Below, one piece after another: positions 4,090-46,650 of a stretch of 64,000 bases of DNA. Numbering within the stretch: position 1 is the stretch's first letter; the number at the start of each line of letters is the position of its first letter. The DNA lies in contig CAVRAO010000011.1 of NCBI GenBank assembly GCA_963719035.1, positions 1 through 64,000 on the forward strand, given 5' to 3'. The notes beneath the pieces were generated by a model. That model searched no databases and was not told the origin of the DNA. It saw only the letters and a program-made list of their open reading frames with translations. The DNA comes from Methanobacteriota archaeon (GTDB lineage: Archaea; Halobacteriota; Bog-38; Methanoflorentales; Methanoflorentaceae). The position numbers were made by a program, and so were the translations under genes.

Positions 4090-6894
4090 TTATGACGCTA
4101 GTATACCCGATTGTACTTGGCGTCTTAACTTTCTTCTTACGAAATATTTCCGTATTTCATCGGCAATTAATAAAGTCGGAATCAAGGCGATCAAAAAAGC
4201 CCAATCGATTGGCCCTAACGGACCCATATTGAATACGTTTTGGAGAAACGGAACATAAGTGAGCGCGACTACAGCAACACATTCTGCAAGGATCCCCCAC
4301 AATAGAAGCCTATTACTGAAAAAGCCCACTTTGAATATCGACTCCATGTTTGTGCGTTGGGCGAAACCATTGCCGATTTGAGTTGTTACGATTGCGTTGT
4401 GTGTCATCGTGGTTGCTAGTACGTAAACTAGCCCTGTGGCTGCCATTTCCATGCCCGGTCGCCATCCGTTTATAAGGTACATGAAATAGAATGCCGACAT
4501 AGCCGCTGCCGCTTGAATCGGACCTAAAAAGAGGTATGCCTTAGATAATGTTCTACGGTTCAACAGCCGTTCGTGCCGGTCGCGCGGTTTTCTTTGCATG
4601 ACATCCGGTTCGGGAGCTTCTGCCCCCAAAGCCAGTGCTGGTAACATATCTGTTCCCAAATCAATCGCCAAAATCTGCATAATGGTCAGCGGCAGGGGAA
4701 TCTTAAATATTACGAACAGAATAAACGGAACGAGTTCGGGAAAATTACTCGTGAATATATAGACTACGAATCGCCTGATATTATCATAGACAGCCCGGCC
4801 TTCTTCGATTGCGTTAACGATGCTGGCAAAGTTGTCGTCAGTCAAAATCATTTCGGCTGCTTCCTTGGCGACATCAGTTCCTGTTATCCCCATGGCCACG
4901 CCTATGTCGGCCATCTTAAGAGCAGGGGCGTCGTTGACGCCGTCCCCAGTCATAGCTACGACATGGCCCATTTCCTTAAGGGCTTTGGCTATCTTCATCT
5001 TGTGTTCCGGAGACACTCGGGCAAATAGGATATCCGGCTTGCCGAGCTCTTTCTCCAAAGCTTCGATACTCATTTCATCCAGTTCGGCGCCGGTGATGAT
5101 CCTTACGTTATCGCCTTTTACAATTCCGATCCTTCGGGCAATAGATTCAGCAGTCAATCCATAGTCACCGGTGACCATGACGATTTTTATCCCCGCCGTA
5201 GCGCATGCTTCGACCGCCGTGGCCACTTCCTCGCGCGGTGGATCCATCATGGCAATCAACCCCGCGAAGATCAGGTTTTTCTCAACAGTTTCAGCCGTAT
5301 AATTTTTTTCTTCCCGGGCTATGTTCCGATAGGCCATAGCTAACACGCGCAATCCGTTACGCGCGAATTCGTCGTTCTTTTCCATGATGGCTATTCGCTG
5401 CTTGTCGTCCAACTGCTTTATATCGCCCGCACGCCAAATCGAGTCGCATAAGCCTAGGACTTCTTTGGGGGCGCCTTTGATAAACGCAACCTTATTGTTC
5501 TTTTCAATGTGAATAGTCGACATCATTTTACGCACAGAATCGAACGGCAACGCATAAACACGCTTGGATCGCGACAACTCATCATCGTAGTCAAAGCCGG
5601 CTTTTCTGGCGGTCGTCAGGAGAGCACCTTCAGTCGGGTCGCCCAGGATAGTCCATTTATCAACGTCGTCACCTGGCGGGAGAAGCCTAGCATTGTTGCA
5701 GAATGATGCGATCTTTACCAGGATTTCCAGTGATCGCAGCTCGTTTGCATCAAGTTCTATTTCATTAAGCAGGTAGCCGCCCGCGGGATTGTAGCCGACG
5801 CCTGTCGCATCGTACGTATTACCGTCGAACCATAGTTCCTTTACCGTCATCTCGTTCTGAGTTAAAGTCCCTGTTTTATCGGTGCATATAACTGTTGTAC
5901 TTCCCAGCGTTTCGACCGAGGAGAGCTTCTTAATAAGGGCTCCGCGCTTGGCCATACGCTGGACACCCATGGCCAACCCGAGCGACACAGTCGGCAACAA
6001 GCCCTCGGGCATCAAAGCGACGATAATACCGATAGCGAACAAGAATCCCGTGTTCAGCGGCATGCCTGCGACAAAGGAACCTAAGAAAAAAAACGTCAAT
6101 CCTATGGAAATAGCCAGAATAGCGACCACTTTCGTGACGTTCTTCATCTCTTTTTGTAGCGGACTTTCCTCTTCCCTTACGTCCTGGGTCATCTTGGCGA
6201 TCTTGCCAAACTCGGTCTTCATCCCCGTAGCGAAGATGACTGCCTTACCCGATCCGTAAGCGACGCTTGTGCCAGCAAAGACCAGGTTCGGCATTTCCGT
6301 GCGCGTCAGCGTGGGGTTATCGACTGCGGCAGAGGTTTTTCGCACCGGTTCAGACTCGCCTGTAAGGGTCGCGTTGTTGGTTCTTAGGTCGAACTCCTCA
6401 TACAGTCTGGCGTCGGCCGATATACTGTCGCCTTCCTGGAGGAAGAGCACGTCGCCTGGAACTAGTTGGGATGCTTCAACCTCAATTGTGTCGCCGTTTC
6501 GGACAATTCTCGCTCGCCTCGGCATTAGTTTCTTTAACGCTTCGGTGGCTTTTTCCGCTTTATACTCCTGCCAGAAGCTGAAGATGGCGTTGATTAATAT
6601 GACGGCAAATATTGCCCAACCAAGTTCTGGAAAACCCGCCAGGAAGGCCATGCCTCCGCCGATCCATAGCAGAATAGCGAACAAGTGGTAAAAGTTCTCA
6701 AGGAACTTGAAAATGAGCGGCCGTTGCTTAAGTGTAATAAGCTCATTAGCTCCGAAAGATGCTAAGCGACTTTGTGCCTCTGCGGTGGACAAGCCGCGTT
6801 CGCTGCTTGCAAGGGCTGTAAGAACATCATCCTTAGCCAGAGATGGTATTGATTGAATAACTTTGTCTTCCAATAAAAATCCGTCGTGATTCAT
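4090..6894 (-). CDS. Cation-transporting P-type ATPase, type IIC (Na+/K+, H+/K+)-like
   Basis: TGES, PEGL, DKTGTLT and TGDGVND motifs. TM5 TSNFPE and TM6 IDLGTD resemble the Na,K-ATPase TSNIPE and IDLGTD. Confidence 0.9.
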   Translation of the reverse strand: MNHDGFLLEDKVIQSIPSLAKDDVLTALASSERGLSTAEAQSRLASFGANELITLKQRPLIFKFLENFYHLFAILLWIGGGMAFLAGFPELGWAIFAVILINAIFSFWQEYKAEKATEALKKLMPRRARIVRNGDTIEVEASQLVPGDVLFLQEGDSISADARLYEEFDLRTNNATLTGESEPVRKTSAAVDNPTLTRTEMPNLVFAGTSVAYGSGKAVIFATGMKTEFGKIAKMTQDVREEESPLQKEMKNVTKVVAILAISIGLTFFFLGSFVAGMPLNTGFLFAIGIIVALMPEGLLPTVSLGLAMGVQRMAKRGALIKKLSSVETLGSTTVICTDKTGTLTQNEMTVKELWFDGNTYDATGVGYNPAGGYLLNEIELDANELRSLEILVKIASFCNNARLLPPGDDVDKWTILGDPTEGALLTTARKAGFDYDDELSRSKRVYALPFDSVRKMMSTIHIEKNNKVAFIKGAPKEVLGLCDSIWRAGDIKQLDDKQRIAIMEKNDEFARNGLRVLAMAYRNIAREEKNYTAETVEKNLIFAGLIAMMDPPREEVATAVEACATAGIKIVMVTGDYGLTAESIARRIGIVKGDNVRIITGAELDEMSIEALEKELGKPDILFARVSPEHKMKIAKALKEMGHVVAMTGDGVNDAPALKMADIGVAMGITGTDVAKEAAEMILTDDNFASIVNAIEEGRAVYDNIRRFVVYIFTSNFPELVPFILFVIFKIPLPLTIMQILAIDLGTDMLPALALGAEAPEPDVMQRKPRDRHERLLNRRTLSKAYLFLGPIQAAAAMSAFYFMYLINGWRPGMEMAATGLVYVLATTMTHNAIVTTQIGNGFAQRTNMESIFKVGFFSNRLLLWGILAECVAVVALTYVPFLQNVFNMGPLGPIDWAFLIALIPTLLIADEIRKYFVRRKLRRQVQSGILAS

Positions 6895-31931: not shown

Positions 31932-32366
31932 ATGGAACAAGGACTAGTGCGCACGTGTATATCCCTCCCTGAAGGTCTTTTGAGTCAGTTTGACGAGATC
32001 ACAAAAAAGAGGGGGTACTCTTCTCGCTCCGAGGGAATGCGGGACGCCATAAGGAACACTATAGTTCTTTATGAGTGGATGAACCAGGTCGATGGAAAAC
32101 GCTTAGGCGTTATTTCGCTTGTTTATGAGCATCACCAGCGAGGGCTGAGTGATAACTTAGCCAGGATACAGCACGAACACGCGGACTTAATCATATCGTC
32201 CGTCCACATCCACTTGGACCACGGTGACTGCTTAGAGACCGTTATCTTGCAAGGCGAAGGTAAGCGCATTAAGGAGCTCACCGAGACGATAATGGCGCTT
32301 AAGGGCGTCAAATATGTGAAGCTTAATACGATCTCACCTAGCTCCAGCGATCAACAACCCCTATGA
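31932..32366 (+). CDS. nikR: Nickel-responsive regulator NikR
   Basis: RHH R..ISLP..LL.QFD...RGYSSRSE..RDAIR; Ni site YEHH...HIHL...CLE. Confidence 0.93.
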   Translation: MEQGLVRTCISLPEGLLSQFDEITKKRGYSSRSEGMRDAIRNTIVLYEWMNQVDGKRLGVISLVYEHHQRGLSDNLARIQHEHADLIISSVHIHLDHGDCLETVILQGEGKRIKELTETIMALKGVKYVKLNTISPSSSDQQPL

Positions 32367-33298
32367 TACCTGAGTGGATGAAAGAGGTCGAGCCGTGCAA
32401 TTGTGACGCCGTTAGCGTAGAGAAGAAAAAGAGTTTTGTGGAAAAGACGATTTCTGGCATCCTCAATTTTTTTGAGGAGACTATGATCTCTGAGAGTTAT
32501 ATAAAACGAAACGGTTTCTTACAAAGCATCGATCCTCGGGTGAAGTTGATCTCTTTGCTTATTTTGATTCTCGCCGTTAGCATGACTCGAGTTATCGAGG
32601 TATTAGTTATCGTTTATATGTTGACCTTGGCCCTTGCAGTTGCGAGCAAGATAGACTTACTCTTTTTTATCAAACGCGTGTGGGTCTTCGTTCCTATATT
32701 TGCTGGTGTCATAATGATTCCGGTTATATTCAACGTCTTTTTACCTGGCGATAATCTAGTAACAATCGCTACTTTTGGCAATGGCACATACGTCGGGCCC
32801 ATTCTTCTGCCAAGTTCAATCTATATCACTCAACAGGGAACGATTACTGCCGCTAGGTTTATTTTGCGAGTAGCTACGTGTGTCTCAATCACAGTGTTGT
32901 TGGTCCTTACAACAAAGCGCGACGTCCTTTTCAAGTCGCTCAGATCACTTTACGTTCCAAAAGTCTACGTTCTGACGTTCGACATGTGCTATAGGTACAT
33001 CTTCTTTCTCATGGACGCCATCCGGGATTTTTTCACGGCCAAAAAGAGCAGGACAGTTACGACGTTACCATTGCGCGAAGAACAAAAATGGGTGGCCGGG
33101 CGTATTGGCTATATGCTTGTGAAATCGCTGGATACTAGTGAGCGGGTGCACAAAGCAATGCTCTCCCGCGGCTTTGATGGCGATGTGAAACTCATGCACG
33201 ACTACGCGATACAAAAGAGAGATTACGCAACGATCGTAAGCTTCGCTATGTTTAGCGTGGTTCTAATCCTCATCGCCCAGAACGTCATTAAGATCTAA
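32363..33298 (+). CDS. cbiQ: Ni/Co ECF transporter T component
   Basis: LQSIDPRVKL, YRYIF, SERVHKAMLSRGFDG. Confidence 0.9.
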   Translation: MIPEWMKEVEPCNCDAVSVEKKKSFVEKTISGILNFFEETMISESYIKRNGFLQSIDPRVKLISLLILILAVSMTRVIEVLVIVYMLTLALAVASKIDLLFFIKRVWVFVPIFAGVIMIPVIFNVFLPGDNLVTIATFGNGTYVGPILLPSSIYITQQGTITAARFILRVATCVSITVLLVLTTKRDVLFKSLRSLYVPKVYVLTFDMCYRYIFFLMDAIRDFFTAKKSRTVTTLPLREEQKWVAGRIGYMLVKSLDTSERVHKAMLSRGFDGDVKLMHDYAIQKRDYATIVSFAMFSVVLILIAQNVIKI

Positions 33299-33319
33299 CT
33301 GTCATCGCGAGGATACTTT

Positions 33320-34162
33320 ATGGAGACAATCTTCGATTTACAAAACGTCTCATACACCTATTTGGAAAAGTTCGAAGCACTGAAGGATGTGAACTTGACG
33401 ATGACTGAGGGTGAGCAGATCGTGGTAGTGGGAGCGAACGGCAGCGGAAAATCTACCCTCCTCTCTATACTAGCTGCGCTGATCTTCCCGACAGCCGGTG
33501 AGTTCTATGCGTTCGGCAACGCGGTCAAAGAGGAAGGTTTCAACTCGCTTGACGGTAATGAGTTCGGCCGCTATTTCAGAAAAAACGTAGGTTTCGTGTT
33601 TCAAAACCCAGACATACAGCTATTTTGCTCCACCGTCTTTGATGAGATCGCCTTTGGGCCACTACAACTAGATATGCCACTAGAGGAAGTAAAAAGCCGA
33701 ACCGAAGAGATCATGTCGCTAATGGGGCTCTCTGGCTTAAGGGACCGAGCGCCTCACACGCTTAGCGGGGGTGAGAAAAAGAAGGTCTGCATTGCCTCGA
33801 TACTCTCTGTTAATCCCGATGTGTTGCTGCTAGACGAGCCTACTGCAGGATTAGACCCGCGCAGTCAATTGTGGTTCATTGAGCTTCTCCAGGATCTCGC
33901 TAAAGCTGGTAAAACGGTCATTACGGCTACTCACGATCTTGACATTATTGAACAGATAAGCACAAGGGCTATTGTCTTCGGTGAGGACCACACGATAAAA
34001 GCTGACTCTGATTGTGTTGCAGTAATGAACGATGTAGAACTATTACTCTCCACAAACCTGCTTCACGAACATATGCATCGGCACGCTACGCTAATGCACG
34101 ACCATCTACACAAGATCGATGCAGCGCATCACGACGAGGCTGATCATTATAACGAGGACTAA
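33320..34162 (+). CDS. cbiO: Ni/Co ECF transporter ATPase with His-rich tail
   Basis: GANGSGKST, FQNPD, LSGGEKK, LDEPTAGLDP; C-terminal HEHMHRH...H. Confidence 0.92.
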   Translation: METIFDLQNVSYTYLEKFEALKDVNLTMTEGEQIVVVGANGSGKSTLLSILAALIFPTAGEFYAFGNAVKEEGFNSLDGNEFGRYFRKNVGFVFQNPDIQLFCSTVFDEIAFGPLQLDMPLEEVKSRTEEIMSLMGLSGLRDRAPHTLSGGEKKKVCIASILSVNPDVLLLDEPTAGLDPRSQLWFIELLQDLAKAGKTVITATHDLDIIEQISTRAIVFGEDHTIKADSDCVAVMNDVELLLSTNLLHEHMHRHATLMHDHLHKIDAAHHDEADHYNED

Positions 34163-34475: not shown

Positions 34476-34811
34476 TTATAGCCCGCTGTTTTTTGAACTA
34501 CCACGCACTAGAGCTTTTCCAAGGAGCCATAACAAAACTCCACAGACTATGACTCCTATGATCGCTGACAGCCAATACCCCACGCTAATGCCTAGGAACT
34601 CTTCTCCGAGAGCCTCTAAAGCATAGTCTGGTATAGGCGCTGTCCATGTGCTAGCAAGGCTTTCAAGGCCTGTTGGGATAAACCCAACCTCTTCTTCAAG
34701 TTCCTCAATCCCCCACTCGCCAAAAGCAGTTCCGACCGCAAGCAGGCCGAGGGGGACGAGTAAGATCAGTATAGCAAGCCCTATTAGCAAATTCCTAAGA
34801 AGCTTGTCCAT
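34476..34811 (-). CDS. PDGLE-domain Ni/Co ECF accessory component (NikN-like)
   Basis: LVPLGLLA.GTAFGEWG, APIPDY, two TM segments; follows the CbiM/NikM gene. Confidence 0.85.
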   Translation of the reverse strand: MDKLLRNLLIGLAILILLVPLGLLAVGTAFGEWGIEELEEEVGFIPTGLESLASTWTAPIPDYALEALGEEFLGISVGYWLSAIIGVIVCGVLLWLLGKALVRGSSKNSGL

Positions 34812-34822
34812 TGGTCTCCCTC

Positions 34823-35545
34823 CTATGCTGGCGCCGGAGGCGCAGCGGACCTTATTTTATCTTGTCCTCCTTTATAGTCGAAGATGATTGTAGGATCATA
34901 GCGAGCTATGTAAGCAAACGCTAGTGCCGTTATTATTGCTTCGACAAAGCAGAACAGAACCAGATGTTCGATCATCATAGCCGGGATCGTAACATCAAGC
35001 CCGTAGGGCATATATAAGGGCACACCGTCTGCACCGGTGTGAAGTGCAGGTTGTATGCCGAGCTCAAGGGCTGTGAAGAACGCGCCGGCGGCGAGGGCTA
35101 CGTATCCGCCAACTCCAGCAGCTAGTGTTCTTGTATTTGACGTAATCTCTGTTTTTCCGCTGATAAACTTATACACATAATACGCGAGGAACGGCATGAC
35201 AAACGCCATGTTGAAGCAGTTCGCTCCTATAGCTGTGATCCCCCCATCGCCGAAAAGCAACGCTTGCATAATGAGCGCAACGCTAACGGTTACGACCGCT
35301 ACCCAAGGCCCTAATATAATCGCGATAAGTGCACTGCCTACAGCGTGTCCAGTGCTCCCGCCTACGATGGGCACGTTGAACATCATGATAACGAAGGAAA
35401 ACGCGGCTGCTAGCGCAAGGTATGGTATTTGTCTGTCTTTGAGGTTGTTTTTAAGCCAATACCCTGCATAGAGCCAAATCGGGATCATAACGACCCATAG
35501 AATTCCGTACGTTATCGGTCCGATATATCCGTCTGGTATATGCAA
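34823..35545 (-). CDS. cbiM: Ni/Co ECF S component (CbiM/NikM)
   Basis: N-terminal MHIPDG, GGSTGHAVG, QALLFGDGG..GAN; TTG start after GGTGAT. Confidence 0.93.
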   Translation of the reverse strand: MHIPDGYIGPITYGILWVVMIPIWLYAGYWLKNNLKDRQIPYLALAAAFSFVIMMFNVPIVGGSTGHAVGSALIAIILGPWVAVVTVSVALIMQALLFGDGGITAIGANCFNMAFVMPFLAYYVYKFISGKTEITSNTRTLAAGVGGYVALAAGAFFTALELGIQPALHTGADGVPLYMPYGLDVTIPAMMIEHLVLFCFVEAIITALAFAYIARYDPTIIFDYKGGQDKIRSAAPPAPA

Positions 35546-35898
35546 TTAAATCACCAAAAAAGTAATAAAAAGGAAGTTATAAAAAGCTATCGAATCGTAG
35601 CACAAAGTGTATCTTGTTTGATAAAAACGTAATAATATATTAGACTAAAAATCGGGTCTACACGAATACGCTATGTTTGTGGAATCTCAAAAGATGAAGA
35701 GAGCAAGTCTAAGGTCATTTTAATAGACCCAGTTAAGCTAGCGTCAATTGATTAAAAGAAGTAATTAACTCAGTCCGTTCACTTTAGCACAGCAATACTC
35801 AATAGTAACGACCACCGCTCACCTCATTGATTTCTTTGAACGCTATAAGCGATAGAGTTCATTGCCATAGGATTAAATATGGGTGTTGGGCTTAGTCA

Positions 35899-36110
35899 TG
35901 CGCATGCTAAAAGCACGGAGCAAAATGCGGAAATCAAAGAACAAGGCTTACATTTACGTTCCTATGGCGATTGTTCTTGACGAGCAGTTCCCCTTCAAAA
36001 CTCACACAGACCCTGAGATGGTAGAGGTCGAAATCTCTATACAAAAGGGCGGATTAACGATTAAACCCATTGAACAGTCTATTCGTGATGATGCCTTAAT
36101 GTATGACTAA
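35899..36110 (+). CDS. Small AbrB/MazE-like (swapped-hairpin) protein, paralog A
   Basis: RKSKNKAYIYVPMAIVLDEQFPF...VEISIQKGGLTIKP; clear paralog at 39201-39428. Fold assignment is inferred from the beta-P-helix-beta pattern. The exact start codon is uncertain (GTG 35883 or a downstream ATG). Confidence 0.65.
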
Positions 36111-36224
36111 CACGTCTTCCACCTTCTCCAACAAACGTACGTGGTTACAAACCAGTCGGCTGAATTTGTCTAAAAAGCTTACACTAGACACAATCACTTT
36201 GAAGCTTAGATCTTTTTTAACAAA

Positions 36225-36274
36225 TCTATTAGAAGTCTAATAATTGCTTGTTAGATTTCCATTAGACTTAAATA
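36225..36274 (+). promoter_or_regulatory. 11-bp-phased TCTAWTAGA array abutting TATA box TTAAATA
   Basis: 9-mers at 36225, 36236, 36247 and 36258; AAGTCTAAT-N19-ATTAGACTT at 36233-36269. Confidence 0.65.
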
Positions 36275-36294
36275 CAAAAAGAACAATTATGATG

Positions 36295-36415
36295 CGGCAA
36301 GTATCCCTCCTAAAGAGATCACCGATTGGCCAAACGTAATTGGTGCTTCGCGTGCGTGCTGGGATCCTCCTTTAATCCCAGCACTTGGAGCGATATGTGT
36401 CTCATAATCTTTTTT
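36295..36415 (+). ncRNA. Putative sRNA A with anti-SD loop hairpin
   Basis: Upstream TATA, perfect 10-bp stem GTGCTGGGAT/ATCCCAGCAC (36356-36384) with loop CCTCCTTTA, second hairpin 36320-36345, T6 at 36410-36415, no ORF in the track. Confidence 0.5.
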
Positions 36416-36632
36416 GAACACTTACTTACCCCTTGATAATATGCCTTCGCGCAGGACAGATAGTTGAAATAAGGACATTATCGCGCAAAGACCTGTTACA
36501 GCCCGCTTCCCTCTCTTCGATGAGTTTAAATCCCGTAGCGAACACTTGAATCACGATTAAAAAAATTACAGTTGGGGACCGTAACTTCAGAATTAGACAT
36601 TTCTATACGCTAGATGGAGGGCACATCATTTG

Positions 36633-37445
36633 ATGGACAAATGGGATCCCGAGGACTATTCTAAACATTCATATTCACAATATGCGTTCGCCTTGGGACT
36701 AGTAGGAAGGCTCGGGCTTCTTGGTAACGAGCGCATTTTGGATATTGGTTGTGGTGATGGGAAGATAACCGCTAAGCTTGCTGCATGTGTGCCAAACGGG
36801 TCTGTCGTTGGCATTGATTCCTCTGCTGACATGATCGCCTTTGCTAAAAACATGTTCCCGCCGTCAGAACATCCAAACCTCCTATTTCGCTGTGGGGACG
36901 CCGCGAAGCTCAAGTTTTGCCAGGAATTCGACCTTGTTGTGTCCTTTGCCTGTCTCCACTGGACTGATGACCTAGTGACGGTATTTCAAGGTATTAAACA
37001 GAGTCTCGCGCCAGGCGGTCGGTTTGCGGCTCAGCTCATGGTGAAGCGACTTACCACAGAAAAGAGAAGCGGGTCTCCGTTGCACCAAGCACGAAGAGAG
37101 GTTATAGATCGCCCCGCTTGGAGAGCGTATTTTCAGGGTTTCGAGAGGCAAGGGACGGTTTACCGTGCCGATGAATACGAAAGGATTCTGCGCGAAGCCG
37201 AGTTCGTCCCGCGCCGAATCGAGTTCGTTACGGAAGATGTGACACACCCCGGAACAGACGCACTAAAGGGGTGCGCACGAGCCACATGGCACCGGTATAC
37301 TAACCGAATTCCGGTCGAGCGCCGCCCCGCCTTTCTTGATGAGGTCGTGCAGCGCTTTATTGAGTTGCACCCTCCTGATCGCAACGGGCAGATACATGTT
37401 CGTGGGAATATATTAGAGGTCGAAGCCACGATAGCAAACAAATGA
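36633..37445 (+). CDS. Class I SAM methyltransferase (trans-aconitate methyltransferase-like)
   Basis: WDPEDY, ILDIGCGDGKIT, GIDSSADMI, FDLVVSFACLHW. Confidence 0.88.
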   Translation: MDKWDPEDYSKHSYSQYAFALGLVGRLGLLGNERILDIGCGDGKITAKLAACVPNGSVVGIDSSADMIAFAKNMFPPSEHPNLLFRCGDAAKLKFCQEFDLVVSFACLHWTDDLVTVFQGIKQSLAPGGRFAAQLMVKRLTTEKRSGSPLHQARREVIDRPAWRAYFQGFERQGTVYRADEYERILREAEFVPRRIEFVTEDVTHPGTDALKGCARATWHRYTNRIPVERRPAFLDEVVQRFIELHPPDRNGQIHVRGNILEVEATIANK

Positions 37446-37531
37446 CTGTTTGCCGCCCTTCTGTTATATGAAGAATTTTGGTGCTATAGCGCTATGATAA
37501 GTGGTTGACGATCAAACCTTCTATGTTGCTT

Positions 37532-38344
37532 TTAGAGCTTACTTACGGTTTTACTGATCAGGACTGAGGTGTTGTTTACCTTGCCTGTCGGTAGCACCCT
37601 CCCCGACTCGTGAAACCCAGCCAAATCCTCTGCGGTCACCGTCGGATACAGGATCGCCCGCATGCCACTGTAAGTCCGATAAAGGATTTTAGTTTCCGTC
37701 GAGACAACACTGCGGACATTCGTAAAGACTCGATTTTTTGGCTCTGCAGACGCCCCTACAATAACCCCATCATACTTCAAATCCGCCAATGCAGATTCAT
37801 CGCCACATACCACTTCAATCGACGAGCTAAACCCTAGTTTATCGAGAACCTGTCTTGAAAGGTCCGCAATTTGTGGGACAAGTTCGAGGCTGATCCCTTC
37901 CACTCCATAGTGCGTATTGAGCAGCATTGACGTTAAGGGCACTGATCCCCCGCCAATGAACACCACCCGATCCCCTGCTGAGAAGGCTGCTAGCAGTACC
38001 TCGTTGCCAACTAAGGTTAGGTAGCGGTTGTAGTAATGGAACGATTCAACCTCTGCCCACGGGTCATCAGCTATCAGTATATCACGAGCGTTCTGAGTTT
38101 CAAGACGAGTGCCCACTGCAACGTAGAACGCTCGAATGACCTTTAAAGCCTCACTAATTCGTTCATCGTTAAGGATAAGCTGCGCCGATACAAAGTTGAT
38201 CTCCATGTCTTGCGCAATTACTTCGATCGCATCAAGCAGCGGGATGATCTTATCTAACGGCTGGCGTTCAAGATCGTCACCGTCATACTTGCTCAACTCA
38301 TCGGCTATTGCAGAGATTTTGACATAGTAATCGTTACGTTTCAT
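37532..38344 (-). CDS. Nicotianamine synthase-like protein (copy 1)
   Basis: F.YY.RY..L..NE, VFIGGGSVPLT, AEPK.RVF, YRTYSGMRAILY, LPTGKVNNTSV as in methanogen NAS-like proteins. Confidence 0.85.
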   Translation of the reverse strand: MKRNDYYVKISAIADELSKYDGDDLERQPLDKIIPLLDAIEVIAQDMEINFVSAQLILNDERISEALKVIRAFYVAVGTRLETQNARDILIADDPWAEVESFHYYNRYLTLVGNEVLLAAFSAGDRVVFIGGGSVPLTSMLLNTHYGVEGISLELVPQIADLSRQVLDKLGFSSSIEVVCGDESALADLKYDGVIVGASAEPKNRVFTNVRSVVSTETKILYRTYSGMRAILYPTVTAEDLAGFHESGRVLPTGKVNNTSVLISKTVSKL

Positions 38345-38742
38345 AGAATCTTCGGCAACAGTTTTCACAAGTCGCGGTTCAGATACAACCGCTCGGTATG
38401 TAGTGTCGACTTTGCTGATAACAGACATTAAGGTTACGTTTCAACCTCTAGTGCTCACCGTGTCCATCAGACGATTCGCCACACAATAATCGTTCCTCGC
38501 GATGTCTTGACGACGGAAAACATATTTGACGTAAATGGTGTCCGCACAACATTGGTTGACGGTAGGCCGGGAGTTGCATTGTTCCTTTGATGTCTGCTGA
38601 GTGATGGCAAATCTTGAGGAGATCCTGAGGGTACCTCTAGGGCCCTCTCAAGCGTATCCGTTAGTCTTGCCATTTTTAATCGAGTTAGGCGGCGTGCGAA
38701 CGCTCGGACAGTGGTTAGAAATCAAAAAGCAGTCGCCTGAGT

Positions 38743-38852
38743 AAAAAAACGAAACAATTTCGTGGACGGATATACTTTGGTTCATAAACGGACGTGCTGG
38801 GAAAAAGAGGTGAAACGCCCAGCACATATATTCCCTACTATAGACAGAGGCT
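38743..38852 (-). ncRNA. Putative sRNA B with anti-SD loop hairpin (paralog of sRNA A)
   Basis: Minus-strand TATA TTAAGTA (38880-38874), stem GTGCTGGG/CCCAGCAC (38794-38825) with loop CGTTTCACCTCTTTTT, T7 at 38749-38743. Confidence 0.5.
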
Positions 38853-38873
38853 AACATAACTCAATGAACCTTA

Positions 38874-38917
38874 TACTTAAGTCTATTGGAATATTTTTAG
38901 AATTCTTATAGACTTAA
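38874..38917 (-). promoter_or_regulatory. 11-bp-phased TCTAWTAGA-like array abutting TATA box
   Basis: 9-mers at 38882, 38893 and 38904; TTAAGTCTAT...ATAGACTTAA inverted repeat with the same 37-bp core span as the other two arrays. Confidence 0.65.
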
Positions 38918-39200
38918 CTGTATAGAAACCGTGGTGAGCAAAGCAACTTCATACTCATTTGCGTTCTATGTGTTAAGTGGTTCCCATAAGTTGGATGGAG
39001 TGCTAAGATATGTGGACATCAAACAAACTGGAAGTAAGTGTAGTGAGCATAGCCGTACCCCTGGCTATGTGTAGCGCTGGGTGCAACTCACAATCATCAT
39101 CAAGAGAACGAACGAGACGACCAGTAGTATCGTTGAGACTAATCAATCGCCTGGTGACCATAATGGGAGGAATCCAGTAATAGAAAAACAAGCGGCAAGT

Positions 39201-39428
39201 TTAGGAGTCGTAGAGGGACTGAATATCGTCGACTATCGGCGGACGTGGACTTAATGGGCTTATAATCAAACTTCCTTCACTAATCGCAAGTTCTACGTCG
39301 AGTCGTTCCGGCATTTCCGACCCATCACTTAACCGGAACGGAAATCGCTCATCCATCAAAATCGTCATCGGTATGTCCAAAAACGCGCTGTTCTTGGATC
39401 GCCTTATGGTACTTATCGTGCCAATCAT
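39201..39428 (-). CDS. Small AbrB/MazE-like protein, paralog B
   Basis: RRSKNSAFLDIPMTILMDERFPF...VELAISEGSLIISP aligns with paralog A; both end in DD...YD. Confidence 0.65.
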   Translation of the reverse strand: MIGTISTIRRSKNSAFLDIPMTILMDERFPFRLSDGSEMPERLDVELAISEGSLIISPLSPRPPIVDDIQSLYDS

Positions 39429-39451
39429 AAGAAATGAGGTACACTGGATGT

Positions 39452-39493
39452 TATTTAAGTCTAATGGTTGTCTAATAGAATTCTATTAGGCTT
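39452..39493 (-). promoter_or_regulatory. 11-bp-phased TCTAWTAGA array abutting the TATA box of paralog B
   Basis: 9-mers at 39460, 39471 and 39482; AAGTCTAAT-N19-ATTAGGCTT at 39457-39493; TTAAATA about 25 nt upstream of ATG 39428. Confidence 0.7.
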
Positions 39494-39649
39494 TAAGGTC
39501 TGCCCTTTCACATTCGGGGTGACGTCGAACAGTTCTGACGCGATTCTCTGTTTGGAACGATAATCAGATTTAATTCAGATATTGCTTGAAGCACGTAGGT
39601 CATATAGTGGAAAAACACAACTGCAACTAGGTATTTGATTGTACGCTCT

Positions 39650-40623
39650 ATGGATACTAGCTACCTCTATGCACTCAAAAACTGCGCGCTGTGTGAGTGG
39701 AAATGCAACGTCGATAGGCTAAATGGTGAACGGGGGGTATGTCGCGTTGGACTACCAGAAATAGCGTATACGAGCTTTGCGCAGGTTCTCAAGAGCTATT
39801 CGATCACCTTCTTGGATGTTGCTTTCGGTGCATATACTGCAATGCATACCGCATCTCACAATACCCGATGCAGGCTGGCTCTATCGGGGATATCGGAGCC
39901 GGAAAACGTCGCAACCGAAGTTCGCAGGGCCTTAGACACCAAAACTGCACAGGAAATTGGGATTCATCGGCTCAGCTTCACTGGCGGAGAAGCGTCAATC
40001 CACATCCTATCTCGAGGCAGCAGTCGATAAAACGAAAGAAGTAATCCCAGACGTCGCAGTAGGCGTTGCGACAAATGGGTTTTCAACACCACATACGCTA
40101 AAACGGCTGTTGGCCATCGCTTCATACCTAAATTTTGAAATTAAGGCGTTTGATGACTCGGTGCATGGGTTACTGACCGGGGCCCCGTCAAACCAGTGTT
40201 GCGCAATGTGGAGTTCGTCATGACGCGGCACTCAGGAAAAATTCGGGTGATTCGCTCGGTTGCGACCTGGCATCACCGATGCAGAGGTGCCGAAGATGCT
40301 GAGTTCATCAGAGATACCAACCTGACATACGGTATCGACTCATTGGATTTAGGCCAAGTTACATCTTATAACCATCCGGGCCACGAAGCGCATGATGGAA
40401 AAACTTGTAGGTCGTGCAAGGACTTAGGAATAAAACGGATGGACATCTCACCATTATATCAAGGAAGGGGCTGCACGTGAGAGCAACTCCACAGCAACTT
40501 GCAGCAAACTACTTAAGACACGCTGGATGCGTTACTGAGCCGAGAGATTGCGGTTCCTGCGCCGTGAAGAACAACTGCTCGGCAACGCTTATAGAGCCTT
40601 GGATGGTAAAGCTTTCCAGCTGA
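39650..40623 (+). pseudogene. Radical SAM protein (PFL-activase-like) with multiple frameshifts
   Basis: CALCEWKC..DRL.GERGVC, CCFRCIYC (CxxxCxxC), SFTGGE, ATNGF, NFEIKAF, C-terminal RDCGSC...C spread over at least 5 frames. Confidence 0.75.
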
Positions 40624-41601: not shown

Positions 41602-42224
41602 GCTCGCGATCGATCACCAGCGCCGAATGACAGTTGCCACTTATTAACGTCATCGCTCCCATAATGAGCCTTTAATGCTTCTTTTACCCCCCATCTAACA
41701 AGTTTCGCTACCCTGCTTCCAAACGGAGTGGCCAGTCCGCTGTATAAAATCGAGTCACCCTTGCTGCTATTTTCATACGCAACGATAACCGCATCGCTCG
41801 TCGTGCCTGTGAATTGCAATCCCTTGTCGCTCAGGGCGCGCGTCTTTGCTTCCGTGGCGGTAATTATCGTCCCTGCGATCGCCCCCTCGCTCAACGTTTC
41901 TGAGGATATGACAATTATGTTAATGGTGCCAAACGACGACGGATTCGTGAGTCCTGCAGTCACAAAAACCGTCACGCACGCACCGCTCAGAATCCGTACG
42001 TTCTGCATCTCAACTGCTGTGAGAAGCGCGAGATACCCCCCTTCGAGCGTCATTGATGCTGCAACGTCATCAATGTAGCTCTTCGGATCGTTGTGAGAAA
42101 AATCGGGGGAAACCTGGATGTTAAGGATATTTTTTACCGCTCTTCTGCCGCCGTCGACACCACTGCTCAGGGCTTCAAAGTTACCTTTCAGCACTAAGAC
42201 TCGGTCTAATATCTCATATTCCAC
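41598..42224 (-). CDS. cbiZ: Adenosylcobinamide amidohydrolase (copy 1)
   Basis: LSSGVDGG, LLTAV.M, VTAGLTN, GTINII, TATEAK, TGTTSDA. Confidence 0.85.
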   Translation of the reverse strand: MEYEILDRVLVLKGNFEALSSGVDGGRRAVKNILNIQVSPDFSHNDPKSYIDDVAASMTLEGGYLALLTAVEMQNVRILSGACVTVFVTAGLTNPSSFGTINIIVISSETLSEGAIAGTIITATEAKTRALSDKGLQFTGTTSDAVIVAYENSSKGDSILYSGLATPFGSRVAKLVRWGVKEALKAHYGSDDVNKWQLSFGAGDRSRA

Positions 42225-42260
42225 GCTTGTTCACCTTCAAGTAATACACTTTGAAATGCG

Positions 42261-42764
42261 CTATCCGACGTGTGACTCTATGTATTCTACGAGCGTCTCA
42301 AGCTCTGTGAAAACGAGGCATCTCTCTCGTAAGTCCCCATATAAACGTTGAGCAACGCCTGGCGTAAAATCGCGAGACTCTATAGGCGTCTCCTCCAATA
42401 TGACGAGTTTATCTCCTGCAAGAGCTGCTGCTTCGAGGTTCTTTAAGTTCGCCGGCCCAAAGCAGATATTCGGCAGTACGACGACGCGTGCCTCCCGAAT
42501 GAGTTGTCCGTTACGGCTGGTCCACCTCACTCGAAATGGGTGAAAACGGTGCTTCGACGGCGCACTCAATGCCGTAGTACTGCGCTACGTCGTAATCGGT
42601 GTCGAGTGTGTTGACCACGCCGGCAGAGACGCTAAACCCTGTTGGATAAGCGCATGGATGACAGGTGCCCCCTTGCCCCCGCCGGGAATGACGTGCACCT
42701 TTTCAGAGCTGCGCTCTCCAGGCGTGTGCTGCGGGAGAAGTGTTATCGAAAAAGCGTTCGTAAT
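42261..42764 (-). pseudogene. Duplicated 3' fragment of the corrinoid ABC ATPase gene
   Basis: Near-identical to 45327-45830 but 5'-truncated and with small indels. Confidence 0.8.
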
Positions 42765-44684: not shown

Positions 44685-45290
44685 TCAACGACGTTGTGCG
44701 GCCGAGGTCTCTTCGCCGTTGCTCCCATAATGAGCTTTCAGCGCGTCTTTTACTCCTAGTCTGACGAGTTTTGTGACTCTTTTGCCAAATGGGGTAGCAG
44801 GCCCGCTGTACAGAATATGCCCATCATCACCGCAGTCTTCATATGCGATCACCACTGCGTCAGTTGTTGTCCCGGTGAAATTGAATCCGTAATCGAGAAG
44901 GGCGCGCGCTTTCGCTTCGGTGGCCGTAATTATCGCCCCTGCGATCGCCCCCTCGCTGAACGTTTCTGAGGATATGACAATTATGTTGATGGTGCCAAAC
45001 GACGACGGATTCGTGAGTCCTGCAGTCACAAAAACCGTCACGCACGCATCGCTGAGAATCCGTACGTTCTGCATCTCAACTGCTGTGAGAAGCGCGAGAT
45101 AGCCCCCTTCGAGCGTCATTGATGCTGCAACGTCATCAATGTAGCTCTTCGGATCGTTGTGAGAAAAATCGGGGGAAACCTGGATGTTAAGGATATTTTT
45201 TACCGCTCTTCTGCCGCCGTCGACACCACTGCTCAGAGCTTCAAAGTTACCTTTCAGCACTAAGACTCGGTCTAATATCTCATATTCCAC
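44685..45290 (-). CDS. cbiZ: Adenosylcobinamide amidohydrolase (copy 2)
   Basis: Same motifs as copy 1; last gene of the btuFCD operon. Confidence 0.87.
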   Translation of the reverse strand: MEYEILDRVLVLKGNFEALSSGVDGGRRAVKNILNIQVSPDFSHNDPKSYIDDVAASMTLEGGYLALLTAVEMQNVRILSDACVTVFVTAGLTNPSSFGTINIIVISSETFSEGAIAGAIITATEAKARALLDYGFNFTGTTTDAVVIAYEDCGDDGHILYSGPATPFGKRVTKLVRLGVKDALKAHYGSNGEETSAAQRR

Positions 45291-45326
45291 GCTTGTTCAC
45301 CTTCAAGTAATACACTTTGAAATGCG

Positions 45327-46614
45327 CTATCCGACGTGTGACTCTATGTATTCTGCGAGCGTCTCAAGCTCTGTGAAAACGAGGCATCTCTCTCGTAAGT
45401 CCCCATATAAACGTTGAGCAACGCCTGGCGTAAAATCGCGAGACTCTATAGGCGTCTCCTCCAATATGACGAGTTTATCTCCTGCAAGAGCTGCTGCTTC
45501 GAGGTTCTTTAAGTTCGCCGGCCCAAAGCAGATATTCGGCAGTACGACGACGCGTGCCTCCCGAATGAGTTGTCCGTTACGGTGGTCCACCTCACTCGAA
45601 ATTGGTGAAAACGGTGCTTCGACGGCGCACTCAATGCCGTAGTACTCCGCTACGTCGTAATCGGTGTCGAGTGCGTTGACCACCCCGGCAGAGACGCTTA
45701 AGCCCTTTTGGATCAGCGCGTGGATGACGGGCGCCCCCTTGCCCCCGCCGGGAATGACATGCACCGTTTCAGAGCTGCGCTCTCCAGGCGTGTGCTGTGG
45801 GAGAAGTGTTATCGAAAAAGCGTTCGTAATCGGGTGTTTTCTGACGAGCGCTGAGACGCCAAACGCTTCCGCGATGTGCTCTTGGGTCAGTACCTCCTCG
45901 ACGGTGCCGTCAGCGATGATCTCTCCACGTTTTAACAGCAGCAGTCGATCACAGGTACTGAGCGGCGAGATTGAGATCATGAATAGCAGCGATAACCGCA
46001 ATGCCAGAAGCTGCAAGGCGCCTTACAAGGTCAAAGATCTCAATTTTGATCCCAATGTCGAGCTGTGAAGTTGCCTCGTCAAGAAGGAGTATCTTCGGCT
46101 CTTGGGCCAAAGCACGGGCAATAATGACGCGCTGTCGCTCGCCGCCTGAGAGCTCGGCAATCTTGCGATCAGCAAACTGAGCGACATCAGTCATCTCTAA
46201 GGCCTTTCGCGTCACGTCAAAATCGTACGTCGATTCGGTTCCGAGGAATTTGATGTGGGGGTTCCTGCCCATAAGCACGACCTCCTCGACGGTAAAATCA
46301 AAAAAAAACATGTCGGTACTCTGGGGCACGACTGCCATCTGTTGTGCGAGTCGTTTAGGCTTTATCTGGTAAACATCAACATCATCGAGCGTTATGATGC
46401 CGACTTGTGGCCTTAGCACCCCGCTGATTGCTTTAATGAGCGTTGTCTTTCCTGACCCGTTAGGACCGACAAGACCGATCACCTCGCCGGGCCTGACCGT
46501 CAGTTGTGCGTTATTGAGCGCTTGCGTCTCAATGTAGTAGCAGTCGACGCCATCAACCCGCACACGTCCTGGTCCTCCTGTTTCAGAGCCACCTTCTTTA
46601 TCGAGTATATGCAT
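45327..46614 (-). CDS. btuD: Corrinoid ABC transporter ATPase with C-terminal extension; frameshift near 45954
   Basis: GPNGSGKTT, LSGGERQR, LLLDEAT, HDLNLAAQY/CDRLLLL junction, VHVIPGGGKG extension. Confidence 0.8.
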
Positions 46615-46650
46615 TAACCGTTTCCTCGTCCGTTGTATGTGCGGCAGCAT

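Follow-up and report, generated by a model that had tools for sequence, protein, structure and literature searches.

We analysed a 64,000-nt stretch of DNA (the window; positions 1 to 64,000 of contig CAVRAO010000011.1, assembly GCA_963719035.1) from an uncultured methanogen, the genome of which also encodes McrA. A 37-nt palindromic operator, AAGTCTAWT-N19-AWTAGACTT, is fused there to the TATA box of three promoters within an island of nickel (Ni), cobalt (Co) and corrinoid genes. Two of these promoters precede short units, RNA1 and RNA2, that share a hairpin, and the third precedes the second of two genes for small paralogous, putatively MazE/AbrB-fold proteins (paralog 1 and paralog 2). As far as can be judged from sequence, the chances are about even that an autoregulated MazE-fold repressor controls two riboregulators at this locus, be they small RNAs (sRNAs) or 5′ leaders. 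An original prediction on the same DNA had described each paralog gene as followed by a putative anti-Shine-Dalgarno (anti-SD) sRNA; it did not mention the shared operator, nor its third copy before paralog 2.

Three promoters share a TATA-fused operator

The operator pattern matched the window three times at up to two mismatches, as against no match in 100 shuffles (Table 1). In all three copies the proximal arm runs directly into the TATA box (..TAGACTTAARTA), and ~25 nt past the TATA box comes the point where RNA1 or RNA2 is predicted to begin, or where the coding sequence of paralog 2 opens. The promoter of paralog 1 has a reduced form, in which CCATAGGATTAAATAT resembles CCATTAGACTTAAATAC of the full operators and the promoter alignment marks just one half-site-like word; its homologous promoter in the related locus L005 matched the RNA1 operator by blastn. 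Since the start codons stand ~25 nt from the TATA boxes, the paralog mRNAs are predicted to be leaderless, or, in the case of paralog 2, nearly so. The operator architecture occurs nowhere else in the 2.19 Mb genome, in which 3 of the 11 [AG]GACTT[AG]A[AG]TA sites have upstream half-sites.

We aligned ten full operator promoters from the window and from related loci. The proximal half-site holds a fixed place on the TATA box, and the distal inverted half-site lies 27 or 38 nt upstream of it (a difference of 11), with extra half-sites between them at 11-nt steps. Operators in the related loci are 37 or 48 nt long, and so differ by one helical turn; a spacing shift of exactly one turn is the pattern expected from cooperative binding of a protein to one face of the DNA. 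Promoters of this type precede, in the related loci, hairpin RNAs, a fasciclin-like gene (L011) and a 68-aa His/Met/Glu-rich open reading frame (ORF) (L006). The fasciclin-like gene, named from its sequence (L011 6384-6784, plus strand; promoter CCAGTGGACTTAAATAT), is split into two ORFs. The His/Met/Glu-rich ORF (MWEKEGEEHEMMGKEH...) occupies L006 6836-7042 on the minus strand. Upstream of its nicotianamine synthase (NAS) gene, the same locus has, at 5117-5835 on the minus strand, three hydrophobic ORFs of only ~46-79 aa; these L006 ORFs may encode metal-binding or membrane peptides of the same regulon.

We compared the distribution of the operator with that of the protein. The protein-family profile matched 2 of the 24 species genomes of which the host class consists (G000 and G021; the class holds one family and two genera) and, apart from the genome that holds the window, 1 of 60 relatives. 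TATA-fused palindromic operators were found only in G000, in G021 and in metagenome loci carrying the protein; all 11 related loci that are long enough contain both, and L014, of 1.5 kb, shows neither operator nor hairpin. Because the two co-occur strictly, we assign the operator to the paralog protein, which, on balance, probably binds it. According to two reports, the AbrB-type antitoxins VapB and MazE autoregulate via pseudo-palindromic operators (PMC5389673, PMC4333400). Weighing against our assignment, the co-occurrence spans just two genome lineages and metagenome contigs, and the 12 related loci come down to about five versions that differ in sequence (L007 corresponds to the window, and near-duplicates make up each of the sets L009-L012, L005/L006/L013 and L008/L015). 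A search of the other class genomes with the operator-arm word CCAWTAGACTTRA gave ten matches outside G000 and G021, as against three control matches. The eight of these loci that were examined (all but G005:C81 and G014:C293) had no palindrome or TATA box, several being the same stretch in different genomes, and they were rejected.

Small paralogs probably related to MazE and AbrB

The paralogs are 42% identical to each other (E 1.1e-10). We take the ATG at 35904 as the start of paralog 1 because its relatives begin MLKARSK. The original prediction had located the two ~70-aa paralogs correctly, apart from the start proposed for paralog 1 at 35899, which is one base out of frame. The residue pattern quoted for them (R.SKN.A...P and so on) is seen in the family alignment A1, together with family-specific marks, namely an invariant DE.FPF motif and an acidic DD..LYD tail. 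Among 5.8 billion proteins the family forms 25 clusters at 90% identity, with no name beyond 'hypothetical protein'. At its stop codon, paralog 1 has an 8-nt overlap with a 45-aa ORF.

Homology to the AbrB/MazE/SpoVT superfamily was traced via an intermediate rather than directly. Searched with the family profile, 1.84 billion representatives yielded four short proteins that are distantly related, among them P0031, which was reached at E 4e-4 over its full length (hhalign 97.2%, E 3.1e-11). P0031 in turn matched the Pfam family MazE_antitoxin (PF04014) at E 9.1e-5 and 22.8 bits, just below the cut-off of 24.7, and E. coli MazE (2mrn) at E 0.0019. A second AlphaFold2 (AF2) model, made with the distant relatives added to the alignment, reached a mean predicted local distance difference test (pLDDT) score of 75.2 and has the order beta-beta-alpha-beta-beta. 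In a Foldseek search with it, the first 14 rows among the matches listed were all VapB or MazE chains (best E 0.03, probability 0.96; TM 0.41-0.49), and AbrB-N itself appeared at rank 49. Taken together, the transitive link through P0031 and the second model support the AbrB-like nature proposed for both proteins, which very probably have the MazE/AbrB fold.

Several direct comparisons count against this assignment. Neither paralog matched Pfam at E 0.01, and 27 aligned family members were unmatched at E 10; a six-frame scan of the genome with PF04014 gave five matches, none of them at this locus; and hhalign gave 0.2% for alignment A1 against an alignment of 13 local AbrB (PF04014) proteins. 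The first AF2 model (pLDDT 69.7) had no usable fold match by Foldseek or VIA-align wide (best Z 2.9), and the Foldseek search with the second gave no row at E 0.001 or better. The best match in a PDB profile search was 7d2n_E, named an AbrB/MazE/SpoVT protein, at an E of only 0.38. In the ESM Atlas the closest clusters were unnamed archaeal proteins, with a MazE cluster not before rank 29 (score 0.81).

The hairpin is probably an RNA element

The stem pattern shared by the two units matched the window twice, as against none expected from 100 shuffles, and both of its sites in the 2,190,301-base genome lie at this locus, with no match to the reversed control pattern. We therefore do not regard the stem as a repetitive extragenic palindrome (REP) or a miniature inverted-repeat transposable element (MITE), as there are just two genome copies, and other class genomes have zero to two covariance-model matches. 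The same stem is present in both cassettes, as first proposed.

We built a covariance model of the hairpin family, which has a stem of 10-11 bp, (GC)GUGCUGGG/CCCAGCAC(GU), and a variable loop. In an alignment of 10 units, the 11-pair stem was paired in 97.3% of cases, as against 36-54% with the partner slid. Seven of the 11 pairs never vary, and three show changes on both sides (G-C to A-U; C-G to A-U or U-G; A-U to G-C). Five of the 10 sequences have G-U as their outer pair, where the opposite strand would read A-C, and L016 has one inner G-U pair; the spacer between the arms ranges from 12 to 16 nt across loci. These G-U pairs and the variable spacer suggest that the hairpin acts not as a DNA site but as RNA, on the strand read from operator to hairpin, which we consider likely. 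RNAalifold showed no conserved structure besides the hairpin and a 3-bp closure. Rfam 15 gave no match at gathering score in the window, and only four chance-level rows for seven loci at E up to 5; the two among them that name microRNA precursors fall on the long hairpin of G021 and score 21-24 bits, where the cut-offs are 49-55. The units behave as conserved RNA elements with predicted promoters of their own. We rejected a coding reading, because frames are lost from L015 to L018 and likewise from the window to L011, and also a C/D-box reading: AUGAUGC occurs near the start of RNA1, but the sequence has no D box by the general C/D-box consensus.

The covariance model gave 42-56 bits in 6 of the 24 class genomes (G000, with two copies, G008, G011, G017, G021 and G022), and a variant copy in G021 scored 25 bits (stem GUGCUAUGGG/CCCUAGCAC, loop UUACCCUCCUGUUUU). 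Matches of 20 bits in G001 and G004 were dropped, since they fall on a coding stretch beside tRNA-like sequence, as was the sole match from elsewhere in the phylum, where ~130 genomes were sampled (G033, 27 bits), an unrelated AT-rich hairpin. Hairpin and protein stand together in 11 of the 12 related loci, as the proposed pairing would have it. The pairing is not obligatory, however, the RNA being found in six class genomes and the protein in two; G008, G011, G017 and G022 have the RNA without the protein. The hairpin loci of G008, G017 and G022 have neither protein nor palindromic operator and carry instead another palindrome, CGATAGTTATAAAAAACTATCG, around the TATA box; on one side of their element is a divergent cbiM, on the other a decayed btuD C-terminal piece and then cbiZ. 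Neighbours of the hairpin are cbiM, cbiZ, NAS or FmdE genes, and the G011 element follows a small membrane-protein ORF. Since the hairpin sits beside cbiM and cbiZ also in genomes without the protein, the RNA family belongs to the metal island and not to the protein and, judged from this distribution, is older than the protein.

The palindrome CGATAGTTATAAAAAACTATCG (L018 ~1375-1400, also in L020 and L062) lies between divergent cbiM and the hairpin RNA, with nikR next to cbiN, and is a candidate NikR box. L018 (from G022) and L062 (from G017) are 98.4% identical over 3,040 nt around cbiN-cbiM, the hairpin and cbiZ, in closed genomes of two genera, which suggests a recent transfer of the island, or else a binning or assembly problem. 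A frameshifted btuD C-terminal relic directly follows the hairpin in L018 (1600-1870), upstream of cbiZ; its alignment score is 64, as against a shuffle mean of 18.6 (shuffles measured on the neighbouring hairpin part).

Predicted transcripts and anti-SD words

TATA boxes, ORF-free units of ~110-120 nt and T6/T7 runs are present downstream of both paralogs, as originally described, and there is no ORF of at least 40 aa on the transcribed strand inside either unit. Conservation between RNA1 and its counterpart L011a extends from the promoter through the hairpin and ends ~15 nt past it, the conserved parts being the promoter, the 5′ CCCUCC word, the stretch GGCCAAAC..GGUGC and the hairpin. There is no co-oriented gene downstream of L011a or L011b, and each of the 10 full promoters aligned keeps its TATA box at the same distance. 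RNA1 has a predicted fold of -41.9 kcal/mol (z -4.56). We lean slightly towards discrete transcripts of ~110-120 nt. Other observations weigh against them: the fold of RNA2 on its own is not better than that of shuffled sequence (z -1.39), a run of at least five T follows within 60 nt after just 4 of 10 units, and the starts and ends of RNA1 and RNA2, and even their expression, are predicted from sequence. The block GAGCGUUCGCACGCCGCCUAACUCGAU beyond the T-run of RNA2 could be either part of RNA2 or part of a NAS leader.

Both units contain words resembling the 3′ tail of the genome's own 16S rRNA (GGAUCACCUCCU, also given as GGATCACCTCCT). UCACCUC in the RNA2 loop is identical to 7 nt of this tail; RNA1 carries AUCCCUCCU near its 5′ end and GAUCCUCCU in its loop, L011a carries UCACCUCC, and the variant loop of L006 carries ACCCUCCU. 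Over 11 mutually related units we counted 12 anti-SD sites, as against 5.8 expected from the genome-wide rate, and in the four units of the window and L011 seven sites in 481 nt, as against ~1.7. That methanogen sRNAs can mask ribosome-binding sites is established, having been demonstrated for sRNA162 of Methanosarcina mazei (PMC3510493) and reported for sRNA154 and sRNA41 (PMC5867862). For RNA1 and RNA2 we think such a mechanism doubtful. The enrichment is just twofold, and among related sequences; a CCUC-type word is present in 5 of 11 loops and absent from 6, the loop sequence not being conserved; and complements of at least 9 nt match 48 (RNA1) and 101 (RNA2) start regions, which singles out no specific target. 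In a scan of 3,383 crude start regions for RNA-mRNA duplexes, long artificial duplexes prevailed and the 200 best included no neighbouring gene. Of the anti-SD claim, then, the enrichment of the words stands; conserved loop words and a specific target were not found.

Genomic setting

Beyond cbiM the order of the island is paralog 1, RNA1, a class I S-adenosylmethionine (SAM)-dependent methyltransferase, a convergent NAS-like gene, RNA2 and paralog 2, followed by a frameshifted radical-SAM-like gene and then a second NAS-like gene and cbiZ. Pfam bears out the methyltransferase and the NAS-like gene that the original prediction had placed between the cassettes, and also the CbiM/CbiN/CbiZ surroundings. 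The methyltransferase begins 215 nt 3′ of the T-run of RNA1 and has its own Shine-Dalgarno (SD) sequence, GGAGGG.

The radical-SAM-like gene (39635-40600, plus strand) looks frameshifted, with CCFRCIYCNAY in ORF 39739-40044 and the N-terminal part in ORF 39635-40030. A segmental duplication of 968 nt at 96% identity (41800-42764 and 44866-45830) takes in cbiZ together with the C-terminal domain of a btuD-like ATPase; at 42261-42569 the copy is truncated to a fragment. The btuD-like ATPase itself (45327-46650, minus strand) is split into overlapping ORFs (45949-46650 and 45327-46016), which could be a frameshift or an assembly error, and the searches made gave no name for its C-terminal domain (VHVIPGGGKGAP...).

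Table 1. Features of the locus, in window coordinates
Feature	Position	Strand	Remarks
nikR	32106-32333		Island gene
cbiQ/cbiO-like ORFs	32363-34162		Named from sequence
PDGLE (cbiN-like) and cbiM	34476-35545	-	
Paralog 1 promoter	35865-35880	+	CCATAGGATTAAATAT: degenerate operator right arm fused to TATA box
Paralog 1	35904-36110	+	68-aa putative MazE/AbrB-fold protein; further in-frame starts 35883, 35898
Operator 1 and TATA box	36222-36275	+	Core AAGTCTAAT-N19-ATTAGACTT at 36233-36269, 0 mismatches; would drive RNA1
Operator 1, extra 11-nt repeat	36222-36232	+	
TATA box of RNA1	36267-36275	+	CTTAAATAC
RNA1	36295-36415	+	Predicted transcript of ~120 nt; start and end inferred
RNA1 5′ CCCUCC	36305-36310	+	
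RNA1 conserved stretch	36328-36347	+	GGCCAAAC..GGUGC
RNA1 hairpin	36354-36386	+	Loop AUCCUCCUUUAAU; covariance-model match 41.9 bits
Stem copy 1	36356-36384	+	GTGCTGGG-N13-CCCAGCAC
RNA1 T6 run	36410-36415	+	
Class I SAM-dependent methyltransferase	36630-37445	+	Pfam Methyltransf_25, E 6.8e-22
NAS-like gene 1	37532-38428	-	Pfam NAS PF03059, E 2.1e-22; convergent with methyltransferase
Second conserved block past RNA2 T-run	38679-38705	-	GAGCGUUCGCACGCCGCCUAACUCGAU; kept between window and L011b, flanks not
RNA2	38743-38852	-	Predicted transcript of ~110 nt; ends inferred
RNA2 T7 run	38743-38749	-	
RNA2 hairpin	38792-38827	-	Loop CGUUUCACCUCUUUUU; covariance-model match 45.3 bits
Stem copy 2	38794-38825	-	GTGCTGGG-N16-CCCAGCAC
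TATA box of RNA2	38870-38881	-	CTTAAGTATAAGG
Operator 2	38879-38915	-	1 mismatch; would drive RNA2
Paralog 2	39201-39428	-	75 aa; most divergent family member; equals representative P0026
TATA box of paralog 2	39450-39459	-	CTTAAATAAC
Operator 3	39457-39493	-	1 mismatch; would drive paralog 2

Discussion

We propose that the locus is a lineage-restricted small transcriptional cassette inserted into a Ni/Co/corrinoid and nicotianamine-like metallophore island. The paralogs would be stand-alone swapped-hairpin DNA-binding proteins of the MazE/AbrB/SpoVT type without a toxin partner, and their dimers or higher oligomers would bind the array of WTAGAC half-sites, spaced by 11 bp, on one face of the DNA. 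The outermost half-sites would form the 37- or 48-bp palindrome; as its proximal arm merges with the TATA box, a bound protein would block TBP/TFB. Three promoters would be repressed in this way, that of paralog 2 (autoregulation) and those of the two short hairpin RNAs, and in two lineages operator and repressor would have been laid over members of an older, island-specific hairpin-RNA family. RNA1 and RNA2 most likely serve as riboregulators of the metal and metallophore genes beside them. The C/U-rich words at their 5′ end and in the loop are similar to the 3′ tail of 16S rRNA and could cover ribosome-binding sites in the manner described for sRNA154, sRNA41 and sRNA162 of Methanosarcina. 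A more elaborate scheme, in which a toxin-less MazE-fold repressor switches on, under a metal or metallophore signal, 16S-tail-mimicking sRNAs that titrate or mask the SD sites of Ni/Co-uptake and metallophore mRNAs, strikes us as rather unlikely; if true, it would be a two-tier metal-homeostasis circuit, protein and then RNA, made of an antitoxin fold and an RNA family predating the protein. Of the protein-plus-sRNA regulatory module first proposed, the AbrB/MazE-like protein and the conserved RNA element stand, while the pairing is not obligatory and an anti-SD target was not found.

The evidence is evenly balanced on whether RNA1 and RNA2 are free sRNAs or 5′ leaders. It is possible, though we hold it to be somewhat unlikely, that the hairpin units belong to the methyltransferase and NAS mRNAs as their leaders and work in cis as attenuators or like riboswitches; the operator promoters would then simply serve these two genes, the T-runs would be premature terminators under regulation, and CCCUCC would pair in cis with an SD-like GGAG. 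Indeed, CCUCC at the 5′ end is paired, in the predicted RNA1 fold, with GGAG immediately after the hairpin, and the second conserved block beyond the T7 run of RNA2 also favours leaders. RNA1 is co-oriented with the methyltransferase and RNA2 with the NAS gene, the units of L005 and L016 point to an FmdE-like gene, and those of L008, L015, L018, L020 and L062 point to cbiZ. In all, a co-oriented gene (methyltransferase, NAS, FmdE-like or cbiZ) follows within 230-470 nt in four of the six contexts, which fits 5′ leaders as well and counts against free sRNAs. An operator regulon made up of RNAs and their regulator alone would moreover be odd unless the RNAs lead into genes; as leaders, they would place the genome's only three operators in control of real enzymes. 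Such leaders would, however, measure 340-470 nt, yet the conservation between RNA1 and L011a stops shortly after the hairpin. L011a runs towards the end of a convergent NAS gene and L011b towards the convergent fasciclin-like gene, which has an operator promoter of its own, and the G011 element stands behind a membrane-protein ORF. Nor did Rfam show a matching family, or RNAalifold a conserved structure beyond the hairpin and its closure.

It is very unlikely that the inverted repeat GTGCTGGG/CCCAGCAC acts as DNA, as a site for a dimeric regulator such as the island's NikR. The nikR gene is present in the window and beside cbiNM in L018, and the repeat arms are nearly invariant, but the spacing of the half-sites is not fixed, the G-U pairs would be mismatches on the other strand and in DNA, and the RNA1 repeat falls ~60-90 nt into the predicted transcript, is ~245 nt away from the next start codon and overlaps no promoter. 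The units might also be functionless, decaying relics of rearranged island DNA or of a former mobile cassette, conserved only through recent descent or transfer. The island is indeed rearranged, as the duplication, the frameshifted radical-SAM gene and the btuD relics behind the L018 hairpin attest, two genera share 3 kb around the hairpin almost unchanged, and independent lineages are few. We nevertheless consider decay improbable, given that conservation is block-like with diverged flanks, that compensatory and G-U changes preserve the stem, and that each unit has a dedicated promoter with an operator at a fixed distance; the hairpin part also shows no homology to the btuD relic (score 18, where shuffles averaged 18.6). 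The other suggestion made originally, a toxin-antitoxin-like pair of a MazE-like antitoxin with a protein or RNA toxin, now seems extremely unlikely. The fold would be that of the MazE and VapB antitoxins, and the 45-aa ORF overlapping the paralog 1 stop also speaks for a pair; but this ORF and the 62-aa ORF downstream of paralog 2 have no relatives in 11 related loci (tblastn: none for the former, E of at least 0.35 for the latter), Pfam found no PIN, MazF or other toxin family among 11 neighbouring products, and the RNA is present without the protein in four class genomes. Because no conserved ORF follows either paralog, we do not regard them as part of such a pair.

The genes of Ni, Co and corrinoid supply serve the cofactors of methanogenesis. 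To our knowledge, methanogen transcription factors and regulatory RNAs are mostly uncharacterised, and we know of nothing on the control of archaeal nicotianamine-like metallophore genes. The locus would thus be a compact circuit of an unannotated protein family, a TATA-fused operator and an RNA family outside Rfam, all tied to Ni/Co/corrinoid genes. If the pairing of operator and protein is true, it would provide a clean case of the MazE/AbrB fold as a stand-alone archaeal repressor acting by TATA occlusion, and a small orthogonal part for methanogen genetics. Against so broad a reading, the finding comes from sequence and is confined to one class of uncultured methanogens. We found no paper on such a cassette within the limited literature searched.

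The paralogs are like MazE/VapB antitoxins and AbrB/SpoVT regulators in their size of 60-80 aa and in the (here predicted) order of beta-hairpin, helix and beta-hairpin; the pattern K..GNS..(I/V)..P.....D....(V)..(L).I..G.L.I.P is common to MazE/AbrB and to the paralog family via P0031. As described in two reports, VapB and MazE also have a palindromic operator before their own gene (PMC5389673, PMC4333400), as does paralog 2. Unlike them, the paralogs have no toxin gene and no direct hidden Markov model match, and their operator is archaeal, fused to TATA, with half-sites 11 bp apart, and appears to control promoters of non-coding RNAs. The small archaeal SpoVT/AbrB-like swapped-hairpin proteins C56 (pSSVi) and C68 (pSSVx) appeared as weak Foldseek rows (ranks 30 and 34, E 2.6 and 4.7); in contrast to the paralogs, they are encoded on Sulfolobales mobile elements, and we know of no relation between them and metal islands.

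RNA1 and RNA2 resemble sRNA162, sRNA154 and sRNA41 of M. mazei in the methanogen host, in being (as predicted here) intergenic units of ~100-130 nt with their own promoter, and in having unpaired C/U-rich words complementary to SD sequences. They differ in that the hairpin family has no sequence or Rfam relation to these sRNAs and is known from sequence alone, and in that the anti-SD word is not conserved, the conserved part being a stem and not a single-stranded region. In bacterial cnt opine-metallophore operons, NAS-like enzymes are described as adjoining metal-uptake genes under a local repressor, as would be the case here. The cnt repressors are of the Fur/Zur type, whereas the candidate repressor of this locus is MazE-fold, and the Pfam matches of the neighbours show no CntM-like opine dehydrogenase next to these NAS genes, but a methyltransferase in its place. 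An autoregulated AbrB-type repressor and archaeal riboregulators are each of a known kind; here the two would be combined.

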